DNA of 64,000 bases from Deltaproteobacteria bacterium. Its GTDB lineage: Bacteria > Desulfobacterota_D > UBA1144 > Nemesobacterales > JAJCZQ01. The notes beneath the pieces were generated by a model that had not been told where the DNA came from, did not search any database, and saw only the letters and a program-made list of their open reading frames with translations. The DNA lies in contig JAJCZQ010000049.1 in NCBI GenBank assembly GCA_029262335.1, positions 13,731 to 77,730 on the forward strand, given 5' to 3'. Position 1 is the first letter of the stretch; each line of letters begins with the position of its first letter. Shown here one piece after another: positions 2,047 to 47,656 of this stretch. The position numbers and the translations under genes were made by a program.

Positions 2047-3747
2047 ATGAAATTAAGGCAATTAATTGTTTTAAGTATTTTTTCATTTTTATTTTTAACT
2101 CCGGTTGCATCTTTTTCAGGCATGCCGACTGACCTGCCCATACCTGAAACAGATTCAGCCAAATATGTACAGGTATCATTTTTTGACCTTCGTGAAAGAG
2201 AGAGTTACGTGCAGGTTACAAATACAAGTGCATCATCCAAGATACTGCATGTACAGGTATTTGATGTTAGCAATGACTGTGGCGAAAATAATTTTTTTGA
2301 TGATTATACAGGTAATGACACCCATGTTTACAATATGAGGAACATACAGACAAATGACGGCGATGATGCAGGCCTTGTGCTTCCCGATGACGCATACGGA
2401 ATAGTTGTAATATATTCAGTAGTGAGCGAAGGCGGCCCGATTGATGAGAGTGAAGAGCTTGTAGGGAATTTCAGAATTCTTGATGATCTTGGTTATGAAT
2501 ATCGCACAAATTCACAGGCGTTTTTCCTTAACGCAGACCCAATGCCTTTAAATACAGAGAGATTTTTTACTTTTAACTTTAACACTACAGCCGGAACTAG
2601 CTTTGCAGATGTTGTAGGTGTAAACATGGTTTTCGATGAAGGTTCAAATGAATTTTCAGTTAACCCTCTTGACGTAGGATTAACGCTGGATGTTGATCTG
2701 TTCAATAATGCAGAAGTTCCATTTTCCTGCCGCGACGTAGCATTTGTATGTGCAAATGATGAAAGCCCTGTAATAAATTTTATTCTGGAATCCGCAGGAG
2801 TTGCAGTTGCTGCTTTTGAATATGGTATCAACAATGCTCTGCCTCATAGTAAAGGCGGTGAAGTATTATGTTCCGGAAATATAGTTGGTGAAGGACATGC
2901 AAAACTTACAATAGAATCAGTATCAACAAGTAATCTTGTGTCTGCTTTTTTTGTAGGACTGAATAACGGAAACGGAAGAGGCAGTATGGACTCTCTTTGG
3001 GACCCATCAGACAATGATTTCCTTAGAGACATTTTGATAGGTGATTCTACAGTAATAGAGAGTGAAGACCTCATATTTCCTGTAACACTGACTACTCCTT
3101 CTGATGAAGAAGTTGAGGTTGATTTTGGAGTAAATGATATAGATACTTCGGGAATAGCTGATTTTGATCTGTCAATGGCTCAATGTAGTCTGGATAATAT
3201 TCTTTTCTCAGATTGTTCAACACTTTTATTTCCACCCGGCGTAACAATGGCCTATTATTTGATTCCTACTGTTGATGATGACATATTTGAACCTGATGAA
3301 GACCTTGAACTATTTGTTGATTCAGTGCTGTCAGGGGAGATAAGGAACACAATTGAAGGTACAGGTACAATACAGGATGACATGATGCCGCCTGACCTTA
3401 CAATTCTAGATTCTACAATTGTTGAGAGCGGCGGAAGTATGCTTATTGATCTTGAGCTGTCAGGGCCGTCATCAGAACCAATTACAGTAGAACTTCTGAC
3501 TGCAGACGGAACACCAGATCCAGCTACAGAAGATTCTGATTACACAACTCAGGATGGTGTAATGGTTACATTTACGCCTATGACTACAATGCAAAGTATA
3601 ATGATTCCAATTATTGATGATGGTGTTTGTCCTGCGGAACCTTTAAATGAATTTTTTATTATTGACGTAGCAAATATAATAACTGGTCAGCTTGGCACAA
3701 TTACACCTGGAACAGGAACTATTGTTGCTCCTGCATGTATAATGTAA
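2047..3747 (+). CDS. Secreted acidic protein, paralog family member 1: signal peptide, conserved N-terminal module of unknown function, C-terminal Calx-beta-like repeats
   Basis: 566 aa, N-terminal signal peptide, very D/E-rich. N-terminal region is nearly identical to ORF 3946..5691 (PIPETDSAKYVQVSFFDLRERESYVQVTNTSASSK...). C-terminal segments (TVDDDIFEPDEDLELFV, IPIIDDGV...EFFII...GTGTI) fit the Calx-beta pattern (I.DD...E.DE.F.V.L). RBS gggagg upstream. Confidence 0.8.
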   Translation: MKLRQLIVLSIFSFLFLTPVASFSGMPTDLPIPETDSAKYVQVSFFDLRERESYVQVTNTSASSKILHVQVFDVSNDCGENNFFDDYTGNDTHVYNMRNIQTNDGDDAGLVLPDDAYGIVVIYSVVSEGGPIDESEELVGNFRILDDLGYEYRTNSQAFFLNADPMPLNTERFFTFNFNTTAGTSFADVVGVNMVFDEGSNEFSVNPLDVGLTLDVDLFNNAEVPFSCRDVAFVCANDESPVINFILESAGVAVAAFEYGINNALPHSKGGEVLCSGNIVGEGHAKLTIESVSTSNLVSAFFVGLNNGNGRGSMDSLWDPSDNDFLRDILIGDSTVIESEDLIFPVTLTTPSDEEVEVDFGVNDIDTSGIADFDLSMAQCSLDNILFSDCSTLLFPPGVTMAYYLIPTVDDDIFEPDEDLELFVDSVLSGEIRNTIEGTGTIQDDMMPPDLTILDSTIVESGGSMLIDLELSGPSSEPITVELLTADGTPDPATEDSDYTTQDGVMVTFTPMTTMQSIMIPIIDDGVCPAEPLNEFFIIDVANIITGQLGTITPGTGTIVAPACIM

Positions 3748-3870: not shown

Positions 3871-3899
3871 TTGAATTAGTAATCAAAAAATACTATTAT
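3871..3899 (+). promoter_or_regulatory. Putative sigma-70 promoter of paralog 2 (TTGAAT-N17-TATTAT)
   Basis: -35 TTGAAT at 3871-3876, 17-nt spacer, -10 TATTAT at 3894-3899. Spacer sequence aatcaaaaaatac parallels the paralog 1 promoter. Confidence 0.4.
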
Positions 3900-3945: not shown

Positions 3946-5691
3946 ATGAATTCAAGAATAATACTATTATTAGGAATCGTAATATCTTTATTAATCTCAT
4001 TGCCATTTACCACATATGCAGGAATGCCTGATTTTGATGACGACGACCTTCCGATACCGGAAACGGATTCAGCCAAGTATGTACAGGTATCTTTCTTTGA
4101 CCTTAGAGAAAGAGAAAGTTATGTACAGGTAACAAATACAAGTGCATCATCAAAAGTCCTGCACGTTCAGGTCTTTGATGTAAATAATGATTGTAACGAA
4201 AATAATTTTTTTGATGATTATACAGGTAATGACACCCATGTTTATAACATGAGGGACATCCTGACCAACGATGGTGACGATGCAGGCCTTGTGCTTCCTG
4301 ACGGTGCATATGGAATAGTTGTAATATATTCTGTCGTAAGTGAAGGCGGCCCGATAGATACGGGACAGAACCTGATAGGAAATTTCAGGATTATGGATGA
4401 CCTTGGTTATGAGTACAGGACCAATTCACAGGCATTCTTCCAGGACATTGACCCCGAACCGCAAAATTCACAAAGATTTTTTACTTTTAATTTTAATTCT
4501 ACAGCCGGTACAAGCTTTGCAGATGTTGTAGGTGTCAACATGGTTTTTGATAATGGTTCAAATGAGTTTGTAGTAAACCCGCTTGATGTTGGACTCACCC
4601 TGGATGTTGATTTATTTAATAATGATGAAGTTCCTTTTTCCTGCCGCGACGTGGCATTTGTATGTGCAAATGATGAAAGCCCTGTGATAGATTCTATTCT
4701 TGAAAATGCAGGAGTTGCAGTTGCGGCTTTTGAATATGGAATAAACAATGCACTTCCTCACAGTAAAGGCGGAGAGGTTCTTTGCTCGGGAAATATTGTG
4801 GATGAAGGGCATGCCAGGCTTACTATTGAATCAGTATCCAACAGTGAACTTGTCTCTGCATTTTTTGTAGGACTGAATAATGGGAACGGAAGAGGTAGTA
4901 TGGACTCTCTCTGGGACCCTTTTGATACTGACTTTGTAAGGGACCTTCTTATAGGTGATTCAACTGTTATTGAAAGTGAGAGCCTTATATTTCCTGTAAC
5001 TATTACTACACCTTCTGATGAATCACTCTTTGTTACTCTCGATCTTATAGACGGTTCTGCTACAAGTACGGATGATTATAATGAAATGTCTACCCGGTGC
5101 AGCCTTGAACCAGATATGAACTTTGAACCCTGCGGTGCAATTGAATTTCCACCAGGTGTAACAATGGCTTATTACCTTGTTCCTACCAGAATCGATGATA
5201 TCTTTGAACCTGATGAAGACCTCACGGTTGAATTTGTCAGTGCAACAGGTGATATAAGAAATGCTAATGTTGGTACCGGAATAATTATGGATGACCTGAT
5301 GCCGCCTGATATAACAATTATGGACTCAACTGTAATGGCAAGTGAAACATTTATGTTTGAAATGCAGCTCAGCCATCCTTCATCAGAGCCTATAACTATT
5401 GCACTTAGAACAGAAGATGGTCAGGATAACCCTACTTCAACTGAAGCAACTGATTGCAACGATCCTGGCGCAGACTATCTATCTGCAGACGGGTCGGAGG
5501 TGACATTTCCTGCTGGTGATACGGTATTAGTAATGCCGTTTCCTGTTCAAACTTGTGAAAATAACGTTTCTTGTGACAGTGCTTTTTCAGAAGACCTTAT
5601 ACTTGATGCCGATCAATTGTCAGGACAAATAGGTACAATTACACCTGGAACAGGAACAATAAATAATAATGCTGTTTGTATGGGCCCATGA
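3946..5691 (+). CDS. Secreted acidic protein, paralog family member 2 (same architecture as 2047..3747)
   Basis: 581 aa, signal peptide. Long blocks identical to paralog 1 (ESYVQVTNTSASSK, NNFFDDYTGNDTHVYNMR, GNGRGSMDSLWDP, FPPGVTMAYYL, DDIFEPDEDL). C-terminal GTITPGTGTI conserved. Middle and C-terminal regions are more diverged. Confidence 0.8.
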   Translation: MNSRIILLLGIVISLLISLPFTTYAGMPDFDDDDLPIPETDSAKYVQVSFFDLRERESYVQVTNTSASSKVLHVQVFDVNNDCNENNFFDDYTGNDTHVYNMRDILTNDGDDAGLVLPDGAYGIVVIYSVVSEGGPIDTGQNLIGNFRIMDDLGYEYRTNSQAFFQDIDPEPQNSQRFFTFNFNSTAGTSFADVVGVNMVFDNGSNEFVVNPLDVGLTLDVDLFNNDEVPFSCRDVAFVCANDESPVIDSILENAGVAVAAFEYGINNALPHSKGGEVLCSGNIVDEGHARLTIESVSNSELVSAFFVGLNNGNGRGSMDSLWDPFDTDFVRDLLIGDSTVIESESLIFPVTITTPSDESLFVTLDLIDGSATSTDDYNEMSTRCSLEPDMNFEPCGAIEFPPGVTMAYYLVPTRIDDIFEPDEDLTVEFVSATGDIRNANVGTGIIMDDLMPPDITIMDSTVMASETFMFEMQLSHPSSEPITIALRTEDGQDNPTSTEATDCNDPGADYLSADGSEVTFPAGDTVLVMPFPVQTCENNVSCDSAFSEDLILDADQLSGQIGTITPGTGTINNNAVCMGP

Positions 5692-8380: not shown

Positions 8381-9142
8381 ATGAGTACTCCGTTAATAGT
8401 AGTTATAGCAATTGTCGGACTGATTATTTTTTCAGGTGTAAAGGTCCTTTATGAATATGAAAGAGGTGTAATATTCAGACTTGGACGGCTCTCAGGAACA
8501 AAGGGGCCGGGTTTTAAGTGGATTATACCAGGCATAGATAAGCTTGTTAAAATAAGCCTTAGAATAATAACAATGGATGTTCCTCCGCAGGATGTTATTA
8601 CAAAAGATAATGTTTCTGTTAAGGTGAATGCAGTTGTTTATTTTAAAGTAGTTGAACCTAAAAAGGCAGTTGTTGAGGTAGAAAACTATCTCTATGCCAC
8701 ATCGCAGCTTGCCCAGACGACTCTTAGAAGTGTTCTTGGCCAGGTTGAGCTTGATGACCTGCTGGCAGAAAGGGATAAGCTTAACATTAAACTACAGGAC
8801 GTACTTGATAAACAAACCGATGCCTGGGGAATTAAAGTTACACTTGTAGAAGTAAAATATGTAGACCTGCCGCAGGACATGCAAAAAGCCATGGCCCGTC
8901 AGGCAGAAGCAGAAAGAGAAAGAAGGGCAAAGGTTATTGCGGCAGAAGGTGAATACCAGGCTTCAACAAAGCTGTCAGAAGCTTCAGCTATTTTATCGGA
9001 AAACCCAATGGCACTTCAGCTAAGGTATCTGCAGACAATGATTGAAATGTCTTCTGATAAGAGCTCTACAATTGTATTGCCCTTACCAATTGACCTTTTA
9101 ACACCGTTTATAGATAAATATAAAAACAGCCTTAAATCATAA
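8381..9142 (+). CDS. SPFH/band-7 (stomatin-like) protein
   Basis: N-terminal TM helix followed by an SPFH domain pattern (RLGRL...KGPGF..IIP..D......D.....KDN..V.V.AVVYF.V.....A). Coiled-coil A/E/R-rich C-terminus. Confidence 0.85.
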
Positions 9143-9167
9143 TTTAAAACTTTGAAGTGAGATTAGA

Positions 9168-10814
9168 ATGCCGATAAAAAATTTCTACAAGATTCTTATA
9201 CTCTTTTTAGCTGTATTAGTTGTTTCATGTGGTGGAAGCAGTGATAGCAATAATAATGCTGCTAATAAAAATAGTGCTGAAGATTCAGGCCCTGTACCGG
9301 GTGGCTGGCTAATTTATCATCTGGGCGCTGAACCGGCAACGCTAAACCCTATTACAGCAACTGACGCATCAGAATCAACAATCAATGGGGGAAAGATTTA
9401 TGAGACCCTGATTGAACGAAATGATGAAACTCTTGAGCTTGAACCCCTGCTGTCTGAGTCGTGGGAGATATCGGATGACAAACTTAAATTCAAATTTAAA
9501 CTGAGAGAAAATGTTAAGTGGCATGATGGCGTGCCTTTTACTTCAGCTGATGTGGTATTTTCCTACAAATCTATTATGGATCCAAAGGTAGATGCCCCGC
9601 ACCTAAGGAGTTATTACCAGGAAATACTTGATGTAAAGGCAATAGGAGACTACGAAGTTGAGTTTACATATGCAAGGCCTTATTTCCTTGCGCTCGAATT
9701 TTGCGGCGGAATGCCGATTGTACCAAAGCACCTTTTTGATAAAGGTGATTTTAATAAGAACCCATACGGTAGAAAACCGGTTGGCACAGGCCCTTATAAA
9801 TTTGTTAAGTGGACCACAGGGTCAGAAGTTGTAATTGCAAAAAACGAAGATTACTGGGGCAAAAAGCCCGACCTTCAAAGTATTGTTTTTAAAATCATCT
9901 CTGATAATACAGTGGCCTTCCAGGTATTAAAGAGGGGAGACCTTGATTTATCCGGACTAACTCCCATCCAGTGGGAACGACAAAGCAATACAAAATTATT
10001 TAAAGAAAATTTTAATAAATATAAGTATTTCAGGCCCAATTACAGTTTTATCGGCTGGAATATTAAAAAACCGTTTTTTAGTGATAAAAGGGTAAGGACA
10101 GCCATGACCCACCTTTTAAACAGGCAGGAAATACTTGATAAAATTCTGCTTGGCCTTGGGGCTATTGTTACTAATCCCTTTTATATAAACAGCCCGGAAT
10201 ATGACAAATCAATAAAACCATATGCTTACGATCCAAATGCCGCAAAAGCCCTTCTTGATGAAGCAGGCTGGACGGACAGTAACGGTGACGGGATCAGGGA
10301 CAAGGACGGAGTAAAGTTTGAGTTTGAATTTCTCCTGCCAAGCGGGTCGGATACAAGTGAAAAGATCGCAACCGTTCTTAAAGAAGAACTGGACAGTGTT
10401 GGGATAACAATGAAGATCAGAAAGACAGAGTGGGCGGTATTTACAACCAGGCTGCAGGAAAGAAAATTTGATGCTGTCACACTTGCATGGAGTATGGGAG
10501 TGGAGTCTGACCCTTACCAGATCTGGAGTTCGACACAGTCTCTTACGGGTTCTAATTTTGTAGGTTTTGAAGACAGCAGGGCTGACAAACTGATTAACCT
10601 GGCCCGGCAGGAATTTGACCGGAATAAAAGGATTGAGCTTTACAATGAGTTTGCAAATATTGTACATGAAGAGCAGCCGTATACATTTTTATTCTGCAGC
10701 ATGTCGACTGTAGCGGTAAGCAACAGGTTTAGAAATGTAGAGGTTTACCTGCTGGGCCTTGACCCGCTAAGATGGTATGTCCCGGCAGAACTTCAAAAAT
10801 ACGGTAAAGAATAA
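9168..10814 (+). CDS. ABC transporter substrate-binding lipoprotein, peptide/nickel family (OppA/DppA-like)
   Basis: Lipobox VVSCGG. Family-5 SBP size (548 aa). First gene of a five-gene ABC operon. Confidence 0.8.
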   Translation: MPIKNFYKILILFLAVLVVSCGGSSDSNNNAANKNSAEDSGPVPGGWLIYHLGAEPATLNPITATDASESTINGGKIYETLIERNDETLELEPLLSESWEISDDKLKFKFKLRENVKWHDGVPFTSADVVFSYKSIMDPKVDAPHLRSYYQEILDVKAIGDYEVEFTYARPYFLALEFCGGMPIVPKHLFDKGDFNKNPYGRKPVGTGPYKFVKWTTGSEVVIAKNEDYWGKKPDLQSIVFKIISDNTVAFQVLKRGDLDLSGLTPIQWERQSNTKLFKENFNKYKYFRPNYSFIGWNIKKPFFSDKRVRTAMTHLLNRQEILDKILLGLGAIVTNPFYINSPEYDKSIKPYAYDPNAAKALLDEAGWTDSNGDGIRDKDGVKFEFEFLLPSGSDTSEKIATVLKEELDSVGITMKIRKTEWAVFTTRLQERKFDAVTLAWSMGVESDPYQIWSSTQSLTGSNFVGFEDSRADKLINLARQEFDRNKRIELYNEFANIVHEEQPYTFLFCSMSTVAVSNRFRNVEVYLLGLDPLRWYVPAELQKYGKE

Positions 10815-43600: not shown

Positions 43601-44335
43601 GAAGATCTGCTTGGTGAAATAATAAATAATAAACTTTTTAATCCTTCGGCGATAGTTGGGATATGGCCGGCAAACAGTGTTGGTGATGATGTAGAGATAT
43701 ATACTGACGACAAGAGAAAAGAAGTAGTAGAAAATCTTCATTTCCTTCGCCAACAGGGAAAAAGAAAAGAAGAACAGCTCTATTACAGCCTTTCTGATTT
43801 TATAGCACCAAGATCTGCAAATAAGATTGATTATATCGGAGGATTTGCAGTAACAGCCGGTGACAAAGTTGAAAGCCTTTCTGAAAAATATAAAGACGAC
43901 AACGATGACTACACCTCAATTATGATAAAAGCACTTGGCGACAGGATTGCCGAGGCACTAGCGGAGATGATTCATAAAAAGGTTAGAGACTTATGGGGTT
44001 ACGGTAAAAAAGAAAATTTATCGAATGAAGACTTTATAAGTGAAAAATACAGGGGCATAAGGCCCGCCCCGGGATATCCTTCATGTCCCGACCATACAGA
44101 AAAAGGAATACTTTGGAGACTTCTCGATGCCGAGAAGCATACAGGTGTTTCCCTTACCGAATCATACGCTATGACCCCCGGAAGTTCCGTTTCCGGATTT
44201 TACTTCTCACACCCCGATGCACGGTATTTTAATCTTGGAAAGATACTTAAAGACCAGGTTGAAGACTACGCAAAAAGAAAAGGGCTGTCAGTAGAAGAAG
44301 TTGAAAAATGGCTCCAGCCTAATTTGGGTTATTGA
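40634..44335 (+). CDS. metH: Cobalamin-dependent methionine synthase
   Basis: 1233 aa. N-terminal Hcy-binding domain with Cys ligands (GGCCGTTP), pterin-binding domain, B12-binding D-x-H-x-x-G (GDVHDIGKN), C-terminal AdoMet reactivation domain. Confidence 0.9.
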
Positions 44336-44441
44336 ATATCATAAATCCATAGTTTATTAAAATATGTAAAAATTGTTTGTAATAAACAATTCAAATCTGT
44401 GTGTTATTCCTAAAAACACTACACTGTCAAAATATATTTGG

Positions 44442-44469
44442 TTGTAATAAATAGTATTTATTATATAAT
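44442..44469 (+). promoter_or_regulatory. Putative sigma-70 promoter of paralog 3 (TTGTAA-N16-TATAAT), flanked by a 12-mer direct repeat tgtcaaaatata
   Basis: TTGTAA at 44442-44447, TATAAT at 44464-44469. tgtcaaaatata occurs at 44424-44435 and 44469-44480. AAGGAGG RBS before the ATG at 44520. Confidence 0.4.
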
Positions 44470-44519
44470 GTCAAAATATAATTAAATTAAGTAAACGATC
44501 AGGTTTAAAGGAGGAATTT

Positions 44520-45549
44520 ATGTTTAGAGGGTTAAAGTTTTTAATTATTTTTACATTGTTCTTCACAGTATTTTTTGTGGATACCAAGGATTCATTTGCT
44601 GGGGGATTTACTATAGTTCGACCGCAAACTGACAACGCTTCATACATTTTGGTATCAATCTTTGATCTAAGAAACCGTGAAAGCTATGTGCAGGTAACTA
44701 ATACTAGTGATAGTGCTCTTACAACACATGTCCAGGTATTCGCAGTTAATGATAACTGCCGTGAGAATGATTTTTTTGATACATATACCGGAAATGATAC
44801 TCATGTGTACAACATGCGTGATATATTAACAAATGACGGTAACCCATCGGGTGTTGTTCTTAATGGTGGCGAATACGGTATGGTTGTTGTTACAGCAACT
44901 TTAAATGGCTTGATTAATGATGTTTTGCAGGATTTGGTAGGAAATTTCAGAATAGTTGACGAAGCAGGTTATGAATACCGTACCAATTCTTCTGGAACAA
45001 ACAGGGTATTTATTGGTAATGATAATCCATTTGGAACTACAACTCTTTCAACTGGTAATTTTAATTCCGAAGGTGGAACAAACCAGAGTGATACGTACAC
45101 TGTTGTTTTAAGTGAAACACAGAATGGTTCTGTGGAAGTAACAGCAAATCCTTTGGAAACATTTATTGTATCCGATGTTGATATTTATGACCTTAATGAA
45201 GTCCCATTTTCATGTCCCAATACAATATTTGCTTGTGTAGATCAAAACAGTGCAGTACTTGAAGAACTACTTGAAGAGGCTGCTGAAATCTCACCAGGTG
45301 CAAGTATTGCTACTTTTGATTCTGGATTAAATGAAGTCTATCCTAGCAGTAAGGGTGCTCCTCTTGTTTGTCCAAATAACGTTGTTAAGTAATGGTTTTT
45401 CAAGAGCAAACACTGTTGGATTTAGTTTTACAGGTCCTTTTGATGGATTCTATATTGCTGCATTTGTAGGAATCAATAATGGTAACGGTAGGGGAAGTAT
45501 GGACCAGATATGGCTGGAGAATTTTTTACTTGCAACTCCATTAGGTTAA
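44520..45549 (+). pseudogene. Third member of the secreted acidic protein family: frameshifted near 45385-45392 and truncated, lacking the C-terminal Calx-beta-like region
   Basis: ORF 44520..45392 carries the family N-terminal module (ESYVQVTNTSDS, HVQVF, NDFFDTYTGNDTHVYNMRDILTNDGN, GNFRIVDEAGYEYRTNS). The continuation (AAFVGINNGNGRGSMDQIW) is in a different frame in ORF 45331..45549, and then stops about 270 codons early compared with the intact copies. Confidence 0.5.
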
Positions 45550-45759
45550 AAAATTAAATTGAAATAATGGGTTAGATGGGCAGATTTAAGATCATAAATT
45601 CATTAAATCCTCCAAACTCATTTAACCCATAATTATTTACTATTCTTTACATTTTAATAAGTAATTACTAAAGACGAGTTTTATCACAACAAAACTTAAA
45701 AATAATTCATACAACTAAGATGATTTAATACTTTTGAGGGTGAAAAAGAGTATAATCTA

Positions 45760-45945
45760 TTAAGAAATCCCCAGAACAATTGACTGATAAAGAAGATACA
45801 TACCCATTGCTACTTCACTGACGTTATCAGGGTCACGGTACGAATACCAGATCTGCATAAGTTCAATTTTATATGGGATCATCACAAATAGTATTAGTGA
45901 TGGTAAAAGAAGAGTGGTGTTTATTAGTATTCTTATTTTTGACAT
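45760..45945 (-). CDS. Small hydrophobic protein (61 aa), possibly last gene of the minus-strand cluster
   Basis: ORF with one predicted TM segment. Overlaps the upstream gene by 13 nt. No homology recognisable. Confidence 0.25.
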   Translation of the reverse strand: MSKIRILINTTLLLPSLILFVMIPYKIELMQIWYSYRDPDNVSEVAMGMYLLYQSIVLGIS

Positions 45946-46211
45946 TTTTTCATCGGTTCTGATTCAATTTCTTCAACAAAACCTTTTTCTACTTCAACTT
46001 CTGCACATACGCCTACTTTAAGCGGGCCGTTATCTTCATCAAGCTTGGTTTTCTCAGTTGCCTTGAATACCCGGTCACCAATAATCCAGTTGCCGGCTGT
46101 GCCGTCAGGCCTTGCATGAATAATTCCTTTGTATTCTTCACCTGCAAAAAGAGGTGTCGAATAAATGCAGAAAAGTGAAAAACATATACTTAGTAATAAA
46201 AATCTTTTCAT
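45933..46211 (-). CDS. Small secreted protein (92 aa)
   Basis: Clear signal peptide (MKRFLLLSICFSLFCIYSTPLFAGE). 4-nt overlap (ATGA) with the upstream thioredoxin-fold gene. Confidence 0.45.
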   Translation of the reverse strand: MKRFLLLSICFSLFCIYSTPLFAGEEYKGIIHARPDGTAGNWIIGDRVFKATEKTKLDEDNGPLKVGVCAEVEVEKGFVEEIESEPMKKCQK

Positions 46212-46780
46212 TTATATTTCACCGAACATCCATATGGTTTACTTTTAGATATTTCTATTGTATCACCTGTAGTTAAATTTGTAAGGGCAAGGTCAACATA
46301 ATTATTTCTCTTGTCTGAGTTGTTTGCACCGCTTTTATCATCATCTATGCCACCCTCGTAAACAAGGCCGTCTGTCTTATCAATTATATACATATGAGGT
46401 GTGGTTTTTGCTCCAAATGATTTGCCTACTTCTCCGGAACTGTCATTTAATATGGGATACGGGACTTCATGCTGATCAGCCCATTTTTTATTGTCATCAT
46501 TACCCATATAGTGAGTACTGTTTACAGCAAGCCATACTACTTCCTTATCTTTGTATTTCTCGGCAAGTTCTACCATGGTTTTTTCACGATAGTGCCTTTC
46601 GACAAATGGGCAGTCCGGGTTTGTCCATTCCAGGACAACAATTTTATCACTATAGTCTGAAAGGGATATTTTATTGCCATTTTGGTCTTCGAGACTGAAA
46701 TTATTGTCTACAGCAAAGGAATTAATGCTTAATGCTAGAATAAAAAGAAGTAAAACTGGTATTAATTTTAAAGTTTTCAT
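46208..46780 (-). CDS. Secreted thioredoxin-fold (redoxin-like) protein
   Basis: Signal peptide. Region KIVVLEWTNPDCPFVERHY resembles the active-site stretch of thioredoxin-fold redox proteins but with a single Cys (C-P-F-V) rather than CxxC. 190 aa. Confidence 0.45.
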   Translation of the reverse strand: MKTLKLIPVLLLFILALSINSFAVDNNFSLEDQNGNKISLSDYSDKIVVLEWTNPDCPFVERHYREKTMVELAEKYKDKEVVWLAVNSTHYMGNDDNKKWADQHEVPYPILNDSSGEVGKSFGAKTTPHMYIIDKTDGLVYEGGIDDDKSGANNSDKRNNYVDLALTNLTTGDTIEISKSKPYGCSVKYK

Positions 46781-46840
46781 TAAATATCTCCGGTTTTTAT
46801 TTTAATATTTAGAATAATAATAAAAGTAATGGATTCAACC

Positions 46841-47656
46841 TTAATTTTTATTAATCACTTCTTTTAAATTGACGGTATATTCAAAACCTTTACGATTATT
46901 ATCTTTATCTATATATGTTATGACTGTATCAAGAAGTTCGGATTTAGAATCATGTCCGGGGTATATTACTGTGGAAAATGAGATAACTTCCTGATTTTGA
47001 TGTTTAGAATATGAAATATTTTCAATATCTACTGTTTTTTCAGGATTAGGATACAGTTTAAATGTGTTATCTAATATACTGTTATTAATGTATATATTAA
47101 ACTTATTTTCTTCATTAACTACCTTGATATCAAATTTGTTGTTTTTTTCCGAAGGCAGTTGATTATTCCAGGTATTAAAAAGTATTTTATTGTTATTTTT
47201 GATTAGATCCTGTGTATATTCTGCTTTTCCTGGAATGCATATCTCTTCGCAGCTTATCCATTTTGTTTTTAAGCTGACCGGAATACTCTTTTTATTAAAA
47301 TCGGCCGGGATTTTAATATCTGACCAGAGCAATACTTCATTTTCGTATCCATAGTCCAGAATATCGCCCTCCCTTATAAAAGCCTTAGGAAGAGGCCAGT
47401 TTAGATCACCTGCTTTAAAACCCTCTGGAAGAGTAAATTCTATTTTTGTAGGAAGGCCTGAATCTCCGGAATTTTTCCAGTAAATATGCCAGTGAGGTTT
47501 TAATTTATATAGGATACCAACTCTTATAATTCCTTCAGTATCGAGCTTGGAAGTATCATATACAAATTCTGTCTTAACTGTTTCAGGTATTTCATCATTA
47601 AAACCTAAAACTGCCAGAGATATTAAAATAATTGGTATAAATAGTTTTAATTTCAT
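46841..47656 (-). CDS. Secreted protein resembling the DsbD N-terminal (alpha) domain family
   Basis: Signal peptide. Motif PHWHIYWKNSGDSGLPTKIEF...LNWPLP and a Cys pair CEEIC are reminiscent of DsbD/ScsB N-terminal domains. 271 aa. Confidence 0.4.
   Translation of the reverse strand: MKLKLFIPIILISLAVLGFNDEIPETVKTEFVYDTSKLDTEGIIRVGILYKLKPHWHIYWKNSGDSGLPTKIEFTLPEGFKAGDLNWPLPKAFIREGDILDYGYENEVLLWSDIKIPADFNKKSIPVSLKTKWISCEEICIPGKAEYTQDLIKNNNKILFNTWNNQLPSEKNNKFDIKVVNEENKFNIYINNSILDNTFKLYPNPEKTVDIENISYSKHQNQEVISFSTVIYPGHDSKSELLDTVITYIDKDNNRKGFEYTVNLKEVINKN

Follow-up and report, generated by a model that had tools for sequence, protein, structure and literature searches.

A strain-specific gene of an unnamed, putatively secreted protein family next to metH, probably broken by one extra base, in an uncultivated marine lineage

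Background

Flexible genomic islets are strain-variable replacement slots in streamlined marine bacteria, the hypervariable regions of Prochlorococcus and Pelagibacter being examples. The locus described here lies next to metH in a 64-kb window (the whole stretch of DNA that was analysed), and it resembles a flexible islet in that the flanks of the slot are collinear and 97% identical, with unrelated single-gene contents swapped between two convergent genes. However, the metH slot is very small, with one gene in 1.0 to 2.5 kb, and no integrase, tRNA, or flanking repeats were seen at it, which sets it apart from flexible islets.

The gene in the slot has to be read with a +1 shift at a point where a stop codon interrupts the zero frame. 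In this it is like the prfB-type frameshift, from which it differs in having no slippery P-site codon, no upstream Shine-Dalgarno-like element, and no conservation of the arrangement in homologues.

The ASRT/TM1070 (ASRAH) superfamily consists of predicted sugar or small-molecule binding domains, and some of its members are extracellular (De Souza, Iyer & Aravind 2009, PMC2739507). Structure modeling predicts an ASRT-like beta-sandwich fold for the family to which the gene in the slot belongs. This gene is the third family member in the window and is referred to as copy 3 in the following. The likeness is limited to the predicted fold: identity to ASRT/TM1070 is 7-10%, there is no Pfam, NCBIfam, or PDB sequence or profile match between them, and the copy 3 family protein is three times larger. 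Its signal peptide, its four conserved cysteines, and its GLNNGNGRGSMD motif are not, to our knowledge, defining features of ASRT/TM1070.

The gene and its reading frame

The coding features of copy 3 and of the two other family genes in the window are as follows.

44520..45392, + strand: ORF A, 290 aa, with the signal peptide and family residues 1-289; a premature TAA at its end
45331..45549: ORF B, 72 aa, with AAFVGINNGNGRGSMDQIW inside
45388..45549, + strand: continuation in the +1 frame, from SNGFSR to GINNGNGRGSMDQIWLENFLLATPLG and a stop; last three beta strands plus GNGRGS, ending at the normal family stop
45384..45389, + strand: extra-base site, GTTG[T]TAAGT versus GTTG-TAAGT in L031/L032/L001, from nucleotide and protein alignment
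2047..3747, + strand: long paralogue 1, 566 aa, family module plus Calx-beta C-terminal extension
TTGAAA(1974)-N17-TATTAT(2002): promoter of paralogue 1, directly 3' of tRNA-Leu
3946..5691, + strand: long paralogue 2, 581 aa, with promoter TTGAAT(3871)-N17-TATTAT(3899)

A tblastn search within the window with ORF A matched 2047..3747 and 3946..5691 at 46-49% identity (E 1e-68 to 1e-70), and ORF B matched both of these genes at the NNGNGRGSMD motif (E about 3e-07). The assignment of ORF 44520..45392 to the family, made in an earlier note on this DNA, is borne out by this homology. The same note had seen the reading frame jump near 45385-45392 into 45331..45549. The jump is there, and it is a shift of one base: nucleotide alignment with the P0002, P0003, and P0004 genes placed one extra base in GTTGTTAAGT (45384-45389), after which copy 3 runs into the premature TAA at 45390-45392, following codon 290. 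When one T (or one A) is removed, CPNNVVSNGFSR is restored, the counterpart of which in P0002 is NVVSDGFTR, and the two ORFs, joined by removal of one base at 45384-45389, encode a protein of 342 aa. The homologues are each read in one frame, whereas copy 3 as written does not have the single uninterrupted frame that characterizes the family. The context of the shift is a TT or AA dinucleotide, so the suggestion of an indel in a homopolymer does not hold.

The repaired protein was modeled with AF2 from an alignment of 122 sequences, which gave a pLDDT of 88 and a pTM of 0.85; a run with 14 sequences (pLDDT 58) was set aside in its favor. Strands 292-302, 311-319, and 324-329 of the repaired protein are encoded past the shift. 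Because these three core strands and the invariant GLNNGNGRGSMD motif are cut off, the model and the conservation suggest that the 290-aa product as written is most likely nonfunctional. The segment past the shift shows no accelerated divergence. The ratio of post-shift to pre-shift identity between copy 3 and intact homologues was 0.80±0.10, equal to the value in intact pairs, and without excess post-shift divergence the lesion would be recent or artefactual.

Family membership and the short form

The repaired 342-aa protein had 848 homologues (E≤1e-3), and the best 119 of these 848 were all 310-366 aa long and covered 85-100% of the product. It aligned end to end, from the signal peptide to the C-terminus, in both a 14-sequence and a 122-sequence alignment. 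It kept every one of the invariant columns of the 122-sequence alignment (43/43), including six past the shift: G292, G317, N319, G321, R324, and G325. The family motifs DLR.RE..Q.T, C.EN.F.D..T..DTH.Y, GYEYR, and G.N.G..RG are present, as are the four cysteines. The tail past GNGRGS is 16 aa, within the roughly 11-21 aa expected of a family member, and equals the median of 114 members (range 11-35).

An exhaustive profile search of 1.84 billion representatives found only 394 clusters at 50% identity. By the author's count from the table, about 39 of the 48 full-module representatives (50% clustering) are stand-alone proteins of 306-391 aa, and a minority carry C-terminal or N-terminal extensions. 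Judged from these sequences, the stand-alone form of about 330 aa is the dominant architecture of the family. Since the representatives are mostly stand-alone, the Calx-beta tails of the 2047 and 3946 genes are a derived state.

The family had no match in Pfam or NCBIfam (E≤1), and none in a profile search of the PDB. Its members have four conserved cysteines and a predicted Sec signal peptide. We infer that this is an unnamed family of Sec-secreted, disulfide-containing beta-sandwich proteins of about 330 aa, represented by P0002-P0120, and our best guess is that the copy 3 product would be an abundant extracellular glycan-binding protein. At least six family loci are found on CAJHZB01 contigs and several on large JGI contigs, and the family is multi-copy in marine, probably Dadabacteria-like genomes, a lineage suggested by named MetH and family matches. 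The nearest metagenomic relatives of copy 3, P0002-P0004, are 58-64% identical to it, and scans of genome and metagenome contigs found no copy 3 relative above 64% identity. An exact look-up of P0001 returned no contig, and P0001 is a singleton cluster.

The two long paralogues share with copy 3 an N-terminal module of ~320 aa with all invariant motifs and cysteines, as well as a strong promoter and a GGAGG ribosome binding site. Unlike copy 3, they continue for 253 and 263 aa past GNGRGS, with Calx-beta (PF03160) matches. Identity between the two is 71%, against only about 44% to copy 3, and both are kept in the ~97% relatives of the window described below, whereas copy 3 is not. With ~44% identity to the paralogues against 58-64% to P0002-P0004, copy 3 belongs to a different subfamily and is no degraded duplicate. 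Copy 3 had no Pfam match, and no coding remnant was found past 45549; the 210 nt past its stop consist of a hairpin and an AT-rich spacer. Copy 3 never carried a Calx-beta tail.

Some further features of family loci were observed. In several cases a tRNA gene on the same strand (Leu-GAG, Arg-CCG, Ser-CGA, or Leu-CAA) is found within 200 nt upstream of a family gene, as at 1869-1951 in the window ahead of the gene at 2047, at L005 5792-5866, at L008 5806-5895, at L010 5823-5906, and at both ends of L032. The L032 contig has the same tRNA 3' half at both ends, which may reflect either duplicated tRNA ends around the gene or an assembly loop. Just upstream of the tRNA-Leu and paralogue 1, at 1660-1790 of the window, is a direct repeat of ~50 nt with 75-nt spacing and an exact 17-nt core, AAATTTATATTTCGAGA. 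The orthologue of paralogue 2 in L034 (11901-13645) is split into ORFs of 246, 130, 149, and 42 aa but is intact (583 aa) in the Logan assembly. L034, which is from ENA, appears to be indel-rich, and caution is needed in judging pseudogenes from it.

The strain-variable slot

Copy 3 occupies a segment that is specific to the strain.

44336..45759, + strand: strain-specific cassette, 1.4 kb, from the metH stop codon to the stop codon of a convergent 61-aa ORF

Relatives of the slot were found through MetH, for which near-identical matches exist; the P0002 and P0003 contigs were too short for a comparison of synteny. Two independent assemblies, L035 from ENA and L036 from Logan, match the window at 96.7-97.6% identity as far as 44347-44357 and once more from 45760 onward. 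Their divergence starts at the metH stop codon and ends at 45760, where the convergent 61-aa ORF has its stop. Between these points, L035 and L036 have a gene for a 262-aa short-chain dehydrogenase (SDR; L035 8703-9764). Other lineages hold yet other contents. Among those with 90-91% MetH identity, L038-L040 have two DUF2652 genes in the slot (L038 8703-11302) and L041 has an LCAT-like (lipase) gene (8703-10231); in L042, with 82% MetH identity, the slot is empty (8697-8723). With five contents in five related lineages, the slot is a hot spot for the insertion of single genes between convergent neighbors.

The JGI contig L037, Ga0104854_10555860 of JGI sample 3300007643, is 99.9% identical to the window, extends 107 nt into the cassette, and ends at 44442; the same strain is present in that sample. 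The left cassette junction is independently backed by L037, and the right junction (45760) rests on L035 and L036. The earlier note had proposed to look for an intact third copy at orthologous loci, and in the ~97% relatives (L035/L036) the gene is absent altogether. A strain-variable slot explains why no close copy 3 orthologue was found in any collection searched.

When the cassette flanks were searched for repeats, target duplications, and homologues elsewhere, only short chance matches were found. The GC content of the cassette (0.36) is not distinct from that of its neighbors, and there is no recombinase among the Pfam-annotated slot neighbors in L035 or L041. Exchange of the slot contents presumably proceeds by homologous recombination in the flanks.

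An integron gene cassette was considered and rejected. The core sites of attC hairpins have the form RYYYAAC...GTTRRRY. The 3' hairpin of copy 3, GTTAGAT...ATTTAAC, has by eye the inverted order of core sites; there is no integrase, and the gene has its own promoter.

On the far side of the slot is a conserved minus-strand cluster (45760-47656) that comprises the 61-aa ORF and three further genes, whose products are a DUF5666-like secreted protein of 92 aa, a member of the AhpC/Redoxin family, and a protein with a DsbD_N domain. The cluster resembles a periplasmic thiol-disulfide module, and the adjoining slot here holds a disulfide-containing secreted protein.

Promoter, repeated 12-mer, and 3' hairpin

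The noncoding features of the cassette are listed below.

44442..44469, + strand: sigma-70-like promoter, TTGTAA (44442-44447)-N16-TATAAT (44464-44469), 10 of 12 consensus matches
44508..44514, + strand: Shine-Dalgarno sequence AAGGAGG, 5 nt before the ATG
44425..44436, + strand: TGTCAAAATATA, copy 1, ending 5 nt upstream of the -35 box
44469..44480, + strand: TGTCAAAATATA, copy 2, overlapping the last -10 base and the likely transcription start region
45567..45630, + strand: AU-rich 3' hairpin, 64 nt, no T run, z -4.05

The TTGTAA-N16-TATAAT promoter and AAGGAGG ribosome binding site described previously were both found, at 44442-44469 and 44508-44514. The promoter is the best sigma-70-like match of the region, as a consensus match only, and strong GGAGG sites precede nearly all family members. 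The 12-mer reported to occur twice around the promoter does occur in two exact copies, of which the first starts at 44425, one base away from the position given for it. These two are the only exact occurrences of TGTCAAAATATA in the 64-kb window. The repeat extends to 20 nt at 85% identity, with a spacing of 44 nt. A direct repeat of at least 12 nt arose in 1.75% of dinucleotide shuffles of the 184-nt, 20%-GC spacer (P≈0.0175), and such a repeat is present in just one more of the window's 26 spacers. The 12-mer repeat is thus marginally unusual; it is suggestive and fails correction for multiple spacers.

A related motif had also been noticed in the promoter spacers of the paralogues, and it is indeed there: GTCAAAAAATA (1985-1995) and ATCAAAAAATA (3882-3892) lie inside the 17-nt spacers. 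These (G/A)TCAAAAAATA strings have the identical position in the two spacers, 6 nt past the -35 box, which is what tandemly duplicated promoters would give. The copy 3 motif lies outside the promoter spacer.

It has been proposed that the 12-mer pair could serve as operators for a regulator that also acts on the two long paralogues. The two exact copies, 44 nt (about four helical turns) apart, bracket the -35 and -10 boxes, and this arrangement, together with the P of about 0.0175 per spacer and the similar strings in the paralogue promoters, speaks for the proposal. However, about 0.4 such repeats are expected by chance in 26 spacers, and TGTCAAAATATA at ≤2 mismatches was not enriched in the window (19 found versus 15.4 expected). 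The version in paralogue 2 differs at 3/12 positions, and the position that the paralogue motifs share through tandem duplication is not the position of the motif in copy 3. Neither P0002-P0004, the closest homologues, nor 25 other family genes have the motif upstream, and GTCAAAATATA had a single match, about 180 nt upstream at an unrelated locus, L011. The upstream regions of 28 family genes shared no motif beyond generic -10 boxes and GGAGG, and there is no adjacent regulator gene. A shared regulator site is therefore unlikely. A second direct repeat, TTG(T/G)TTGTAATAAA, is present at 44373-44386 and 44438-44451 (65-nt spacing); one copy holds the -35 box, and the upstream copy is without a matching -10 box.

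The 14-mer TTAAATCCTCCAAA, which contains an anti-SD-like CCUCC, is identical in the copy 3 hairpin and in the 3' region of the P0003 gene (L032 1247-1312). The outer stems of the copy 3 and L032 hairpins differ by compensated changes, and the proteins are only 59% identical. Because copy 3 and P0003 have the same hairpin arrangement, gene and hairpin appear to have been inherited together. Most family genes end in canonical terminators with a GC stem and a T run, from which copy 3 differs. An Rfam scan of 44250-45950 gave only a sub-threshold chance match, to snoR135 (E 0.81). A near-identical terminator, GGAGCAGTGATTCAGGTCATTGCTCC followed by a T7 run, was observed 30-70 nt past the stops of family genes in L002, L017, L020, L021, and L031. 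Its occurrence on unrelated contigs may mean either that it travels with the gene or that it is a lineage-wide repeated element.

Origin of the extra base

The preferred explanation, to which we assign a probability of about 0.8, is that copy 3 is a normal-length stand-alone family gene on a strain-specific cassette, broken by one extra base. According to this explanation, 44336-45759 would be a self-contained accessory cassette with a promoter, a strong ribosome binding site, a gene, and a 3' hairpin, occupying a strain-variable slot between metH and a small conserved ORF. The extra base would be the only defect of the gene, with all else intact, and it would shift the frame, bring in the TAA, and remove three core strands and a conserved motif. 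The insertion is expected to be very recent or artefactual because the rest is intact and the post-shift segment is not diverging faster.

The earlier note had instead regarded copy 3 as a decaying relative of the long paralogues, shortened by ~270 codons at the C-terminus and thereby deprived of the Calx-beta part. It is a third family member, and the ORF pair does stop ~250-260 residues before the ends of 2047..3747 and 3946..5691, so that the stop is early by comparison with these two genes. It is not early for the family: 45547-45549 is the usual place for the stop, leaving a tail of 16 aa. Stand-alone modules are the norm, as the lengths of the best 119 homologues and the count of about 39/48 representatives indicate, and the short form is the conserved state among relatives, an outcome that the note itself had set against its proposal. 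Copy 3 is also closer to the short P0002-P0004 (58-64%) than to the long paralogues (~44%) and sits on a strain-specific cassette, and the 210 nt past its stop are filled by the hairpin and AT-rich spacer, with no Calx-beta remnant downstream. Decay of a long sibling is therefore very improbable. Equally hard to credit is a programmed +1 ribosomal frameshift or phase variation that would allow some full-length protein to be made. The in-frame stop right at the shift point (AAG TAA T) is superficially like prfB-type sites, but tRNA-Lys on AAG would be unable to re-pair on AGU, there is no SD-like stimulator upstream of GTT AAG TAA T, and UAAU is a strong context for termination. P0002-P0004, the nearest homologues, are each encoded in one frame, and phase variation would need a repeat tract, where 45384-45389 offers only TT and AA dinucleotides.

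Within the preferred explanation of a stand-alone gene broken by one base, the extra base is somewhat better explained as a real mutation that recently inactivated a dispensable gene specific to the strain. It is also quite conceivable, at rather less than even odds, that the extra T or A was miscalled and that the gene is intact, its product being a functional secreted protein of 342 aa. The regulatory signals are all in place, no family-invariant residue is lost, the post-shift segment has no excess divergence, and 45380-45395 is not covered by any independent assembly (P0001 is a singleton, and L037 ends at 44442), all of which a miscall would accommodate. Moreover, L034 (ERZ25072490, long-read-style) shows that indel-broken family genes exist in public assemblies of the lineage. 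However, the site is a dinucleotide rather than a homopolymer, the window has no indels relative to L037 over 4.8 kb at 99.9% identity, and no other broken gene was seen in the 64-kb window. In an otherwise clean window, a single error would need to fall in one accessory gene.

Implications

Nothing here would surprise a specialist. In annotation, the ORF pair is best merged and flagged as a single frameshifted gene of full length rather than described as a truncated paralogue, with the Calx-beta forms regarded as derived. The metH slot provides a convenient marker with which to follow gene flux between strains of an uncultivated marine lineage.

It is a speculative and rather improbable extension that family genes are self-contained expression cassettes, each with a strong promoter, a GGAGG ribosome binding site, and a conserved 3' hairpin or terminator, shuffled between strains into safe-harbor spacers and tRNA-adjacent sites. 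If this were true, the set of secreted ASRT-like glycan-binding proteins would vary among marine Dadabacteria-like genomes, the TTAAATCCTCCAAA hairpin would be a recombination or RNA-stability element traveling with the gene, and the frameshifted copy would be a snapshot of rapid gain and loss in this repertoire. The family itself, with about 394 clusters, no Pfam model, a predicted ASRT-like fold, multiple copies, and strong expression signals, would reasonably merit a domain definition of its own and studies of glycan binding.
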